A stretch of DNA of 64,000 nt from Bacilli bacterium (GTDB lineage: Bacteria; Bacillota_I; Bacilli_A; RF39; UBA660). The position numbers and the translations under genes are program-made. The stretch is from positions 805-64,804 of the forward strand of contig JAGAYJ010000006.1 of the NCBI GenBank assembly GCA_017940575.1. Reading direction: 5' to 3'. Positions 17,842 to 41,216 of the stretch are shown here, in pieces. Each line of letters opens with the position of its first letter. The stretch's first letter is position 1. The notes beneath the pieces are model-generated. The model was not told the DNA's origin, did not search any database, and was given only the letters and a program-made list of their open reading frames with translations.

Positions 17842-18492
17842 ATGGGAGTATATAAAAAAGCTTTATTAACACTTTTTCTATTTCTTGGTATGAGTCATGT
17901 TAATGCCGCAGCTTGTGATAATACTTTAAAAGTAGATTATCAAAATAGAGCTAAGAATATTACTTATTCTTATACTTATAATGATTCTAATAATACTTTT
18001 AATTTGTTGTTTACAAATATTACAGATAGTTTATATTTGATTGACATGGAAAACATGCAAGAATATAGAAATCAAGGCGAAATTACAATGGGTAATGTAC
18101 TTCCAGGCAAAAGTTATAGATATGGAGTATTTACAAGTGATCAAAATCCTTGCAGTAGTTCTAGTATTTATTATATTTATGTAACCCTTCCTTTTTATAA
18201 TCCTTACTATAATGATTCTTTATGTGATGGAATAAGTAGTTATAAATATTGTCGTAAATTTATAAATAAATCTATTAGTTATGAAGAATTTACTGAAAAT
18301 GTTAATGAGTATAGAGATAACTTAAACAGTGAAGATACTAAAGAAGTTGTTGATGAAGAAACACTTTTAGAAAAAGTTTTTGATTATATAACATCTTTTT
18401 ACACTAATTATTATTTTATTATCTTACCAGTCATAATAATTATTTCTATAGTAATTATTATAAGACAAAATAAGAAAGACAGTTTGTTTTAG
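17842..18492 (+). CDS. Secreted, C-terminally membrane-anchored Cys-containing protein, function unknown
   Basis: Signal peptide ...GMSHVNAAA. C-terminal TM YYFIILPVIIIISIVIIIRQNKK. Several Cys residues. Confidence 0.6.
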   Translation: MGVYKKALLTLFLFLGMSHVNAAACDNTLKVDYQNRAKNITYSYTYNDSNNTFNLLFTNITDSLYLIDMENMQEYRNQGEITMGNVLPGKSYRYGVFTSDQNPCSSSSIYYIYVTLPFYNPYYNDSLCDGISSYKYCRKFINKSISYEEFTENVNEYRDNLNSEDTKEVVDEETLLEKVFDYITSFYTNYYFIILPVIIIISIVIIIRQNKKDSLF

Positions 18493-18502
18493 GAGGTGAA
18501 GT

Positions 18503-39154: not shown

Positions 39155-41203
39155 ATGAAACTCAAATTTAAAGCTGAATTAAGAGATATAGTTATATTTA
39201 TAGTTTATTCAATATTCTTGTTTTTCTTAGTTGCAATTGCAGTTGTTAATATTGCATCATTTGCATCAGATGCTACATTTTCAGGACTTAATCCATTTCC
39301 TGCATTTACATCTGGTTTATTCGCACCTACAATGGTATTTTGGTTGGCTGGCTTAATTGCATCTTTTACAGGTGTATCATCTTACTTTTTTGAAAGAGAA
39401 AAAGGTATAGGTGTACAAGTTGGAGCTAAAAAAGAAAAAGGATATTCTAGATGGGCCGAAGATAAGGAATTCAAAAAACAATTAGTTAAAATACTTCCTA
39501 CCGATGAACATGCTGATAAAGTAGGTATTCCTTTAATTAATAATGGTAAAGAGATTTGGGTTGATGCAGAAGGATATCATAATATGATTATAGGATCTAC
39601 TGGATCAGGTAAATCTCAAAGTTTATCTTTTCCATTTATTCGTGTAATGGCTAAAGGCGGAGAGTCTATGATTGTAACTGACCCTAAGGGTGAGTTATAT
39701 GAAAAAACTGCTAATGAACTTAAAGAAAGAGGATATAACATTATTGTTTTAAACTTTCGTAATCCTCAAAATGGTAATTGTTGGAATCCATTCACACTTC
39801 CTTATAAATTATATAAAAATGGTGATATAGATAAAGCAACAGAGTTACTTGAAGACTTGGCTAAAAATATCCTTTATGATGAATCAAGTAAAGGACAAGA
39901 TCCATTCTGGGAAAATACATCAGCGGACTATTTTACAGGACTTTCTCTAGCGCTTTTTGAAGATGCTGCTGAAGAAGAAATAAATATAAATAGTATTAAT
40001 ATAATGAGTACTGTGGGTGAAGAAAAACTTGGTGGTACTACATATATTAAAGAATATTTTTCTGATAAAGATCAAACTGGTGGAGCTTACGTTAATGCAT
40101 CAAGTACTTTAATGGCACCTACTGATACAAAAGGATCTATTTTATCAGTATTTAAGCAAAAAATTAAAATGTTCTCATCACGTGAAAACTTATCAGAAAT
40201 GCTTTCGCATAGTGACTTTGATCTAGAAGACATTGGACGTAAGAAAACAGCTGTATTTATAGTTATTCAAGATGAAAAGAAAACATATCATCCACTTGTA
40301 ACAATATTCTTAAAACAATGTTATGAAACACTTGTTAGAGTAGCTCAAGAAACAGGTGGTAAACTAAAATATAGAACAAACTTCTTACTTGATGAGTTTG
40401 CAAATATGCCACCTTTAACAGACGTTGATGCGATGGTATCAGCTGCTCGTTCAAGAAACATTAAACTTTCATTTATTATTCAAAACTTCTCACAATTAAA
40501 TGATGTTTATGGTAAAGAAAAAGCAGAGACTATTAGAGGTAACTGTGGTAATACAATTTATTTACTTTCAACTGAACTTGCAGCCTTAGAAGAAATATCT
40601 AAGATGTGCGGCGAAGTTAAATCTAAAAAAGATGATAAAACTGATTCAAGACCTTTAGTTACTGTATCAGATTTACAAAAACTTAAAGAAGAAGAAGCAA
40701 TTATTTTAAGATCAAGAATGAATCCATATAAAACAAAATTAAAATTTGATTATAAAATAGATTGGGGTACTAATTATCCTAAAGCTTCTTATCCAAAAAG
40801 AGAAAAAGAAAAAGTAAGAACATTTGATTTAAAGAAATATGTATCTGAAAAACGAGATAAAAAAATTAATGAACTTTTAGGTAATGGAATGACTCCTCCA
40901 AAACCAAGTGGAAATCCTTTTATGGGTGGAATGCCTGGTATGCCAGTCGGTAATATATTTGATGGAGTTAAACAACCTGGTGGATTTAATGTTGATGATA
41001 TAGTTAAGAGAATAGATGCTAAAATTGCTGAATTAGAAGCAGAAGAAGCTGCAGAAAAGGCTAAGCAATCTGATAAAACTGTTAATAAAAAAGCAACTGA
41101 AAAACCTGTTGAAACTAAAGTGGAAGAAAAGAAATTTAAAAGAGAAGAGATTACTGATGATCAATTCTTTGATGATTTCTTTAATGATGAAGACGATTAT
41201 TAA
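39155..41203 (+). CDS. virD4: VirD4/TraG-family type IV coupling protein
   Basis: Two N-terminal TMs. Walker A IIGSTGSGKSQS. Walker B NFLLDEFANMP. Also RSRNIKLSFIIQNFSQL. Gly/Pro/Met-rich then acidic C-terminal tail. Confidence 0.85.
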   Translation: MKLKFKAELRDIVIFIVYSIFLFFLVAIAVVNIASFASDATFSGLNPFPAFTSGLFAPTMVFWLAGLIASFTGVSSYFFEREKGIGVQVGAKKEKGYSRWAEDKEFKKQLVKILPTDEHADKVGIPLINNGKEIWVDAEGYHNMIIGSTGSGKSQSLSFPFIRVMAKGGESMIVTDPKGELYEKTANELKERGYNIIVLNFRNPQNGNCWNPFTLPYKLYKNGDIDKATELLEDLAKNILYDESSKGQDPFWENTSADYFTGLSLALFEDAAEEEININSINIMSTVGEEKLGGTTYIKEYFSDKDQTGGAYVNASSTLMAPTDTKGSILSVFKQKIKMFSSRENLSEMLSHSDFDLEDIGRKKTAVFIVIQDEKKTYHPLVTIFLKQCYETLVRVAQETGGKLKYRTNFLLDEFANMPPLTDVDAMVSAARSRNIKLSFIIQNFSQLNDVYGKEKAETIRGNCGNTIYLLSTELAALEEISKMCGEVKSKKDDKTDSRPLVTVSDLQKLKEEEAIILRSRMNPYKTKLKFDYKIDWGTNYPKASYPKREKEKVRTFDLKKYVSEKRDKKINELLGNGMTPPKPSGNPFMGGMPGMPVGNIFDGVKQPGGFNVDDIVKRIDAKIAELEAEEAAEKAKQSDKTVNKKATEKPVETKVEEKKFKREEITDDQFFDDFFNDEDDY

Positions 41204-41216
41204 TCGTCTTTTTTTA
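41190..41216 (+). terminator. Rho-independent terminator overlapping the virD4 stop (end of the block)
   Basis: aagacgatta-t-taatcgtctt (10-bp arms) followed by a T-run. TTGACA-16-TATAAT follows at 41220-41247. Confidence 0.6.

Follow-up and report, generated by a model that had tools for sequence, protein, structure and literature searches.

The stretch of DNA analysed here, 64,000 nucleotides (nt) of Bacilli bacterium (GenBank assembly GCA_017940575.1, contig JAGAYJ010000006.1; hereafter the window, AT-rich with about 26% G+C), contains at 16225-41211 a block of genes in which a module for a type IV filament, loosely of the Tad kind, is fused to a type IV secretion system (T4SS). The two modules are mostly conserved side by side and in the same order in related genomes. 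The locus is best filed as a monoderm T4SS with a type IV filament, notable for the fusion of the two, for its fixation in the chromosome and for its breadth in an abundant gut lineage. We regard it as moderately likely that the products form one coupled, contact-dependent apparatus; the gene content is read directly, and it is the coupling that is proposed.

A first-pass annotation had read the region as a Tad-like pilus and a Gram-positive T4SS acting as one unit. The single conserved unit stands, whereas the Tad label, the left boundary and the internal promoters had to be corrected; an ORF6N gene within the block is set apart as an insertion, and the block is read as chromosomal and not as an integrative and conjugative element (ICE).

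Linkage and gene order in related genomes

Related loci were retrieved with the proteins of the locus itself, about 20 kb being covered per relative. The comparison set consists of 160 loci, 80 anchored on the secretion ATPase of the pilus module and 80, from metagenomes, anchored on VirB4. A scan with one genome per species gave at least 542 confirmed stretches, from which 80 loci were kept, and the metagenomes contain more than 7,500 homologues of the ATPase. The kept loci are labelled uncultured Bacilli, Tenericutes, Mollicutes, Acholeplasma sp. CAG:878 or Candidatus (Ca.) Fimihabitans, and the complete chromosomes among them are 1.26-1.54 Mb long. These record names point to the RF39/RFN20/ML615J-28 group of Mollicutes-related Bacilli (PMC7301438, PMC10868615). 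The host is not typical of Bacillota conjugative elements, but belongs to an uncultured Mollicutes-related lineage of Bacilli with genomes of about 1.2-1.5 Mb.

At least two T4SS genes are present in 48 of the 55 ATPase-anchored loci with at least 8 kb of downstream sequence. Conversely, among the 37 VirB4-anchored loci that extend 9 kb or more upstream, 28 contain at least two genes of the pilus module. The arrangement is uniform across loci. It starts with a membrane protein, an anchored cysteine (Cys) protein, optionally a large Cys-rich protein, a DUF5411 protein, CpaB, the ATPase and two membrane proteins, and continues with a small pilin, two minor pilins and a protein at the position where TadZ would be expected. 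Then follow one to five VirB2-like proteins, VirB6, VirB3, a split VirB4, a variable hydrolase, a lipoprotein and VirD4, and 3' of VirD4 an optional further VirB2-like protein and a rhodanese. Pairwise protein identities correlate across the modules (r = 0.64-0.80) as well as within them (0.41-0.82). Conserved adjacency, collinearity and correlated divergence argue against a chance neighbourhood of a Tad locus and an ICE, and the earlier proposal that the modules are one unit is strongly supported, with the exceptions weighed below.

More distant versions of the pilus module occur in metagenomic contigs. They contain genes for DUF5411, CpaB, the ATPase, two membrane proteins and small pilin-like proteins, with 25-37% identity to the locus, and thus the pilus module is a family of its own.

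Genes and signals of the block

All open reading frames (ORFs) of at least 90 amino acids (aa) from 16225 to 41642 are on the plus strand, neighbouring genes of the block are spaced by -26 to +134 nt, and the stop/start TAATG overlaps first noted at 24843 and 33410 are both real. However, the block does not start at 17842: the gene for a 521-aa membrane protein lies upstream of that position in 69 of the 80 ATPase-anchored loci. The hairpins flanking the block, together with these conservation data, define the unit as 16225-41211, one gene more on the left than given previously (Table 1). A promoter match of 12/12 stands just past the right-end hairpin, at 41221-41248. Internal promoters had been suggested at 26694 and 28862. 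Both are 10/12 consensus matches, and such matches are equally common in the region and in shuffled sequence (126 vs 132.5 and 115 vs 114.8), so that these candidates carry no weight and cannot be separated from chance matches in AT-rich DNA. No regulatory RNAs were found in a search of the block against Rfam.

Table 1. Position of the block's genes and boundary signals in the window
Feature	Position	Strand	Basis or remark
Terminator-like palindromic hairpin, 3' of the preceding gene	15993-16014		
Head polytopic membrane protein, 521 aa	16225..17790	+	N-terminal transmembrane helices and large C-terminal ectodomain
Secreted Cys-containing protein, 216 aa	17842..18492	+	C-terminal transmembrane anchor; sequence
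Large Cys-rich secreted protein, 1009 aa	18503..21532	+	Signal peptide visible in sequence
DUF5411 protein, 133 aa	21542..21943	+	N-terminal transmembrane helix; PF17424 177.9 bits
CpaB/RcpC-like protein	21964..22797	+	SAF and RcpC domains
CpaF/VirB11-family secretion ATPase, 370 aa	22812..23924	+	Walker A GETGSGKT; PF00437 86.6 bits
Platform-like polytopic membrane protein 1 ('TadB')	23902..24843	+	Structure model
Platform-like polytopic membrane protein 2 ('TadC')	24843..25628	+	Position and topology only
ORF6N/Rha-type gene	25763..26671	+	PF10543 113.6 bits
Small prepilin-like protein, 60 aa	26758..26940	+	
Two paralogous minor-pilin-like proteins, 141 and 147 aa	26952..27833	+	Shared leader, then transmembrane helix
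Conserved cytoplasmic protein at the 'TadZ' position, 335 aa	27850..28857	+	
Two VirB2-like proteins, 121 and 367 aa	28934..30489	+	PF18895 30.1 bits, residues 282-346 of the 367-aa protein
VirB6/TrbL-like polytopic protein, 666 aa	30508..32508	+	TrbL_4 23.5 bits, below gathering score
VirB3/PrgI/TcpE-like small membrane protein, 108 aa	32558..32884	+	
Split VirB4: N-terminal domain, 183 aa, and ATPase, 594 aa	32859..35194	+	Joined by TAATG
Two variable membrane proteins, 391 and 204 aa	35217..36999	+	No family match
Two-domain peptidoglycan hydrolase	37018..38463	+	Glucosaminidase 75 bits, Peptidase_C39_2 58.8 bits
Lipoprotein with C-terminal transmembrane helix, just 5' of VirD4	38456..39142	+	Lipobox LLTGCS; weak lipoprotein-signal matches
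VirD4-type coupling protein	39155..41203	+	T4SS-DNA_transf PF02534 199.6 bits, TraG-D_C 86 bits
Terminator-like hairpin at the right block end	41189-41211	+	10-bp stem and T run; overlaps the end of the VirD4 gene
Single-domain rhodanese gene, right neighbour	41688..41969	+	PF00581 68.6 bits

The window contains 70 ORFs of at least 90 aa, of which 56 were scanned against Pfam. All credible ORFs between 6069 and 58479 are covered by these, and the remaining 14 are mostly opposite-strand overlaps, with a few ORFs near the right edge.

The T4SS half is solidly assigned by sequence. The 367-aa VirB2-like protein has a secreted ectodomain and a C-terminal T4SS_pilin domain, and both VirB2-like proteins weakly match the Mbov_0395 pilin-like family. 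The number of such genes varies from one to five per locus, and the domain is often fused to diverse ectodomains, the longest about 700 aa. The VirB6-like protein matches, besides TrbL_4, the mycoplasma ICE families MMCAP2_0566 (E = 4e-9) and Mbov_0396 (E = 5e-8), all below the cut-offs. The window copy of the VirB3-like protein has no family match; in a mixed set of homologues, 21 VirB3-like copies among them, weak matches to PrgI (5 members) and TcpE (5) were counted over the set as a whole. The gene occupies a conserved site 5' of VirB4.

VirB4 is split in all loci, with identity of 72-95%. Its two ORFs cover positions 97-276 and 295-891 of NF045975, the model of the mycoplasma ICE VirB4, scoring 57.5 and 342.6 bits against a cut-off of 590. 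The ATPase ORF also matches AAA_10, P-loop_TraG and the PDB structure 4AG5 (E = 1e-53). VirD4 scores 317.9 bits with NF045973, the CD1115 family, above the cut-off of 250, and is present in 30 of the 31 loci with enough downstream sequence. Another ATPase, of the HerA/DUF87 type (80.8 bits), is encoded at 50122-51894 on the plus strand, amid housekeeping genes and away from the T4SS block.

Between VirB4 and VirD4 the content varies. Homologues of the 391- and 204-aa membrane proteins occur in only three to seven loci; in other loci a single large protein takes this site, its low-complexity N-terminus joined to hydrolase domains. The hydrolase domains in the window are clear matches, and other loci have at the same site, after VirB4, a CHAP domain (L127), M23 and CHAP (L112), SpoIID (L153), or M23 and SpoIID in a protein of 1419 aa (L141). 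Homologues of the lipoprotein, or members of cluster c5, hold the same position in most VirB4-anchored loci. The proteins of 36385-36999 and 38456-39142, both without a family match, are candidates for a VirB8-like component with the NTF2 fold. The rhodanese gene is found just 3' of VirD4 in 30 VirB4-anchored loci, even where the other flanks differ. This gene may simply be a neighbour that is conserved, or else a hitherto unrecognised accessory.

For the left half 'Tad' is a loose label, since the ATPase is about equally distant from several families, the leader is not of the Flp type and there is no sequence support for TadV, TadZ or T2SSF. The 521-aa head protein (27-68% identity among the loci having a homologue) has no match in Pfam or NCBIfam, and its conservation map lacks the GxGD peptidase motif. 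The 216-aa anchored protein, present in 66 of 80 loci with 22-68% identity and conserved cysteines, gave no family match. The 1009-aa Cys-rich protein (hypothetical protein J6G98_00955 at NCBI, no Pfam match) is a putative, fast-evolving adhesin, found in 52 of 80 loci with 24-51% identity and sometimes duplicated or absent. The DUF5411 protein is much more stable (79 of 80 loci, 47-87% identity), and it occurs in the distant Tad-like module of L164-166 as well.

The CpaB assignment is good. The window protein matches RcpC with 26.1 bits, below the gathering score, and the CpaB model TIGR03177 with E = 2.7e-9; among 25 homologues, 24 contain RcpC (best E = 3e-9) and 13 contain SAF. The ATPase is 74-94% identical across the 80 genomes. 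It has the T2SSE domain expected of the TadA/CpaF type, and several families are about equally near: in PDB the scores are 64 bits for CpaF, 60 for archaeal GspE, 60 for FlaI and 58 for the VirB11 protein HP0525, and in NCBIfam 103.5 bits for VirB11, 85 for TadA-conjugal and 80 for FlaI, each far below the cut-off.

Of the two proteins named as TadB/TadC platforms, only the first has gained support. 'TadB' probably starts at 23935, its homologues being 300-302 aa long. It has no match in Pfam, NCBIfam or among PDB sequences, including a profile comparison with PDB; its family is narrow, the profile collecting only 286 clusters from 1.84 billion representatives, and Pfam detected no T2SSF in the distant full-length members. 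An AlphaFold2 model on a shallow alignment was unusable (predicted local distance difference test, pLDDT, 48.6), and with the distant relatives added the model reached pLDDT 81.6 and predicted TM-score (pTM) 0.72. The sole coherent PDB match of the latter in Foldseek is the cytoplasmic domain of EpsF/GspF, 2vmb_B (TM-score 0.65 by target, root-mean-square deviation 3.3 Å over 112 columns, probability 0.80, non-significant E of 3.8). The model thus lends the platform role of 'TadB' moderate support. 'TadC' (54-90% identity across loci) has no Pfam match, T2SSF included, in the window copy or in 25 homologues, and hhalign detects no similarity between 'TadB' and 'TadC'.

The ORF6N gene follows 'TadC' in the window. 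Its homologues, found in just 3 of the 160 loci, stand at other positions, which marks the gene as an insertion specific to the window and not as part of the conserved system. A 32-nt repeat, ending TAGTTTTGTCGAAT, is present at 14557-14588 and 25653-25684 in copies that are 84% identical. They stand 5' of a YhcG-type nuclease gene (14806-15420) and of the ORF6N gene, and the repeat may be an insertion mark, a regulatory site or a chance similarity. The YhcG/DUF1016 PDDEXK nuclease gene (14632-15420, plus strand) seems to be truncated or split: of the N-terminal domain just the last third remains, a 43-aa ORF lies immediately 5', and the gene is absent from nearly all related loci.

The three pilin-like proteins share a leader M[KR]E[AS]xG followed immediately by a hydrophobic helix, a pattern conserved across loci; they are not Flp-type. 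The leader looks like a class III (prepilin) signal. The 60-aa protein, with 38-83% identity across loci, starts with MKEA[AS]GEAN[LM]TV before the helix. This start is nearly invariant among about 100 loci, and the protein is the probable major filament subunit. The window copies have no pilin match in Pfam or NCBIfam; weak matches to the archaeal Pilin_N numbered three over the whole of a mixed set that included pilin-like proteins.

Classical pilin sequences were seen nearby and in one relative. The 119-aa product of a plus-strand gene at 53866-54225 has a classical N-terminal methylation motif of the ComGC-like or type IV pilin sort (PF07963, 27.5 bits), which makes it probable that the genome carries, elsewhere, a second, conventional type IV pilin system and a prepilin peptidase. 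In L051 (HF989926.1) a 947-aa protein with the classical GFTLIELL type IV pilin N-terminus is encoded at 13283-16126, 3' of the small pilin gene and beside the spoVB and comN homologues and the frames read as relA and dtd, where the T4SS part is missing. A YfhO-family membrane protein of about 800 aa (447 bits for the representative from L083) is encoded in L001, L009, L023, L025, L030, L083 and L088, either between 'TadC' and the pilin genes or just 3' of the small pilin gene. Together with the conserved N-x-T of the small pilin (EAN[LM]T) it could possibly serve in glycosylation of the pilin or envelope. As regards the pilin this was considered too speculative and was left out of the model.

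The last gene of the pilus module had been described as TadZ-like with a ParA fold, a description that no profile confirmed. Neither the protein, nor its profile, nor 25 homologues gave a match in Pfam, NCBIfam or PDB, the PDB profile search returning noise. The protein is 36-91% identical across loci, with a well conserved N-terminal domain and a degenerate P-loop-like G.K..T..GATT. In three metagenomic contigs (L161-L163) genes for CpaB, 'TadB', 'TadC' and the 'TadZ'-position protein are found without ATPase or pilin genes between them; the last is the best conserved, with 43% identity, and the neighbours are ribosomal protein genes, two ABC ATPases, a CbiQ-family protein and a pseudouridine synthase.

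Proposed mechanism, chromosomal setting and alternatives

From gene content, order, conservation and co-divergence we infer the formation of a filament, the coupling of the two machines and the movement of a substrate. The left half would be a type IV filament system of the Tad or archaeal kind, in which the ATPase, the platform-like proteins and the CpaB-like protein would build a filament from the 60-aa subunit and the two minor subunits, with the secreted Cys-rich proteins displayed as adhesins. The right half would be a monoderm T4SS, nearest to the mycoplasma ICE type. The filament would make or tighten contact with another cell, and the VirD4-fed T4SS would move a macromolecule to or from it, VirD4 selecting the substrate. 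The presence of VirD4 in nearly all loci suggests export of a recruited substrate rather than pure uptake. Since no relaxase or integrase was seen in the window, the machine most likely serves the lifestyle of the host and not the spread of a mobile element; small-genome gut Bacilli could live by exchange with the cells around them or by exploiting these.

Across the set, identity is 72-95% in the cytoplasmic motors, 55-90% in the membrane parts and 22-55% in the exposed parts. Conserved motors together with variable ectodomains, VirB2-like copy number and hydrolase domains point to a surface machine whose outside diversifies while its engine is constrained. The motors are even more strictly conserved than SecDF, and this, with the fast-diversifying surface, makes the locus a strong candidate for interaction with other cells.

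Several observations weigh against a coupled apparatus. Since the locus's own proteins served to find the related loci, the linkage fractions presuppose that one module is present. In L018, L051 and L058 the pilus module is followed by housekeeping genes without a T4SS, and in the L114 group the T4SS has no adjacent pilus module; thus the coupling is not obligatory. Adjacency and co-divergence would also be expected from vertical co-inheritance of independent systems. No prepilin peptidase was found in the locus or in the window: the motif G[AGSM]GD[VAILFM]K is absent from all frames, there is no Peptidase_A24 among the Pfam-scanned ORFs, and the conserved gene set of the related loci contains no candidate TadV/CpaA; a gene for one could lie beyond the 64 kb. 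The Flp motif G/XXXXEY is absent too, the leader MKEA[AS]G being followed by EAN[LM]TV without EY. The GspF fold match of 'TadB' is non-significant, and 'TadC' and the 'TadZ'-position protein lack homology support, 25 homologues of each included. Finally, a relaxase could be encoded elsewhere in the genome.

One possibility is that two independent systems are inherited vertically at one site and do not cooperate. We consider this unlikely, but it is a serious alternative. It would account for the loci with a single module, it is compatible with accessory genes (ORF6N, YfhO) having entered the pilus module, 3' of 'TadC' and 5' of the pilin genes, and correlated divergence is expected for any two vertically inherited loci. 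On the other hand, the flanks of the block have been rearranged repeatedly, yet the junction between the 'TadZ'-position gene and the VirB2-like genes has stayed intact. The gap between the two halves is only 76 nt (28857-28934) and contains no terminator-like site on the plus strand, and without selection one would hardly expect co-oriented adjacency over 25 kb to persist in genomes of 1.2-1.5 Mb. In L051 (Acholeplasma sp. CAG:878) the pilus part abuts the genes that form the right flank in the window, namely homologues of spoVB and comN and, by sequence reading, frames of relA and dtd, whereas the T4SS part is missing, which fits a lineage-specific deletion at a conserved site.

The second alternative, clearly improbable in our view, is a decayed or unconventional ICE, whose T4SS would conjugate chromosomal DNA or DNA provided in trans and whose pilus would stabilise mating pairs as in IncI R64. 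VirD4 scores above the cut-off of a conjugative family, the nearest families of VirB4, VirB6 and the VirB2-like proteins are those of mycoplasma ICEs, and the left flanks vary between genomes. Mycoplasma ICEs use a DDE recombinase in place of a classical relaxase, so that the lack of a recognisable relaxase is not decisive. However, the Pfam-scanned ORFs of the window include neither a relaxase nor an integrase nor a transposase, DDE transposases among them, and the direct repeats flanking the block are only short, probably chance ones, not att-like. A plasmid origin was also considered and rejected, as the block matched none of 72,556 plasmids in megablast.

The surroundings of the block also speak against an ICE. 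In the window the block is preceded by genes for a D-Ala-D-Ala carboxypeptidase, two Gate-domain proteins and a pseudouridine synthase, and followed by the rhodanese gene, a SpoVB-like gene, a gene for a post-transcriptional regulator and secDF. Other genomes have, on the left, genes read from the sequence as scpA/scpB or pflB/pflA, or else a gene similar to rluB, and often, on the right, genes for a rhodanese and a VTT-domain protein and rmuC (by Pfam). The identified flanking genes of the relatives are housekeeping ones, differing between genomes. Divergence of the core proteins follows that of neighbouring and housekeeping proteins: L021, the closest relative, shares 97% identity with the window in the pseudouridine synthase and 93% in the ATPase, and in L081 the values are 89% for VirB4, 79% for VirD4, 68% for SecDF and 65% for SpoVB. 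Surface parts reach only 25-50%. With at least 542 stretches in the one-genome-per-species scan, the locus is present in hundreds of species genomes and is not patchy. From the 64 kb of this genome and about 20 kb per relative, we conclude that it appears to be a vertically inherited chromosomal feature and not an ICE.

A RelB/YafQ type II toxin-antitoxin pair (10474-11062, plus strand) lies upstream of the carboxypeptidase gene. At the left window edge, genes on the minus strand encode a collagen-repeat protein (1513-2106) and a BRO-N protein (4061-4879), possibly phage-derived remnants.

It is very improbable that the left half consists of T4SS accessories (a VirB11-type ATPase with membrane partners) and the block is one expanded T4SS: the VirB11 model does give the ATPase its top NCBIfam score, HP0525 is nearly as close as CpaF in PDB and two of the supposed Tad proteins lack Tad homology, but the CpaB/RcpC domain in nearly all homologues examined, the invariant short leader with a hydrophobic helix in three proteins, the GspF-like cytoplasmic domain in the model of 'TadB', the recurrence of the same module in distant relatives and its presence without a T4SS in three loci all count against this.

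The coupled apparatus thus remains our preferred reading. A bolder version of it, which we hold to be rather doubtful, is that a clade of small-genome gut Bacilli (RF39/RFN20-like) depends on one integrated contact machine that captures a bacterial or host partner cell, with which the T4SS would exchange DNA, proteins or nutrients. If true, this would be the Bacilli counterpart of the essential type IV pilus (T4P) and T4SS toolkit of epibiotic Patescibacteria, and abundant gut organisms would live by cell-to-cell dependence. The carriers are uncultured, common in human and animal guts, with genomes of about 1.2-1.5 Mb and, as reported, many auxotrophies (PMC12306168, PMC7301438). In such genomes a 25-kb machine takes about 2% of the sequence. 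The pilin, VirB4 and VirD4 are concrete targets for studying partner dependence, and the outcome could guide attempts at co-culture.

Comparison with known systems

In the searchable literature, with most subscription journals outside its scope, no report was found that links RF39/RFN20-type Bacilli with a T4SS or Tad pili. Two genomic overviews of RF39/RFN20/ML615J-28 do not mention pili or conjugation, one of them having a single, unrelated 'secretion'. No earlier description of the arrangement in Bacillota was found, in agreement with the initial impression.

Like the Tad/Flp systems (Cpa of Caulobacter, Tad of Aggregatibacter), the left half has a CpaF-family ATPase, CpaB/RcpC, two single-domain platform-like proteins, and small and minor pilins in one operon-like block. 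Unlike them, it has no Flp motif, no TadV/CpaA peptidase and no recognisable TadZ/CpaE, T2SSF cannot be detected by sequence, and the ATPase is just as near to archaeal FlaI/GspE and VirB11. The Kil system of Myxococcus is an example of a Tad-like contact machine.

In sequence, the conjugation module of mycoplasma ICEs and the CD1115/CD1110 families of Clostridioides conjugative transposons come nearest to the T4SS. For VirB4 and the VirB6- and VirB2-like proteins the best NCBIfam models are those of mycoplasma ICEs, where VirB4 is Mbov_0397 and the genes follow the same order. In contrast to these elements, the scores are below the equivalog cut-offs, VirB4 is split and no recombinase was seen in the window. 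To our knowledge, mycoplasma ICEs have no pilus-assembly module.

Type IV filament systems encoded together with a T4SS are also found in the IncI plasmids R64 and TP114 and the PAPI-1 island, where the type IV pilus aids or is required for mating (PMC12857230, PMC9045228). However, these mobile elements belong to Gram-negative bacteria and carry type IVb pili (PilQ/PilR/PilS), relaxases, origins of transfer (oriT) and mating-pair formation (MPF) systems of the MPF-I or MPF-G class.

Conceptually, the relaxase-less T4SS encoded in the chromosomes of Patescibacteria comes closest, although the likeness would be one of function only. Patescibacteria such as Ca. Southlakia epibionticum have a chromosomal T4SS without relaxase, with arrays of VirB2-like proteins and VirB1/3/4/6/8/D4-like components, and both the T4SS and T4P are reported to be needed for epibiotic growth on host cells (PMC12102498, PMC12857230). 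A 2025 review states that VirB2 and VirB5 are absent from Gram-positive T4SSs with Patescibacteria as the sole exception, and it describes chromosomal T4SSs with VirB2 arrays as known only from them so far (PMC12857230). The present locus shares with that system the monoderm cell type, the relation to MPF-FATA, the chromosomal location, the small genomes, the lack of a visible relaxase and the VirB2-like arrays. It differs in its host, which belongs to Bacilli, and in the filament module of Tad or archaeal kind, which is fused with the T4SS genes in one same-strand block. Thus small-genome Bacilli would be the second monoderm lineage with a chromosomal, apparently non-conjugative T4SS with VirB2-like arrays and, as far as could be found, this is the first such T4SS fused to a Tad-like filament module.

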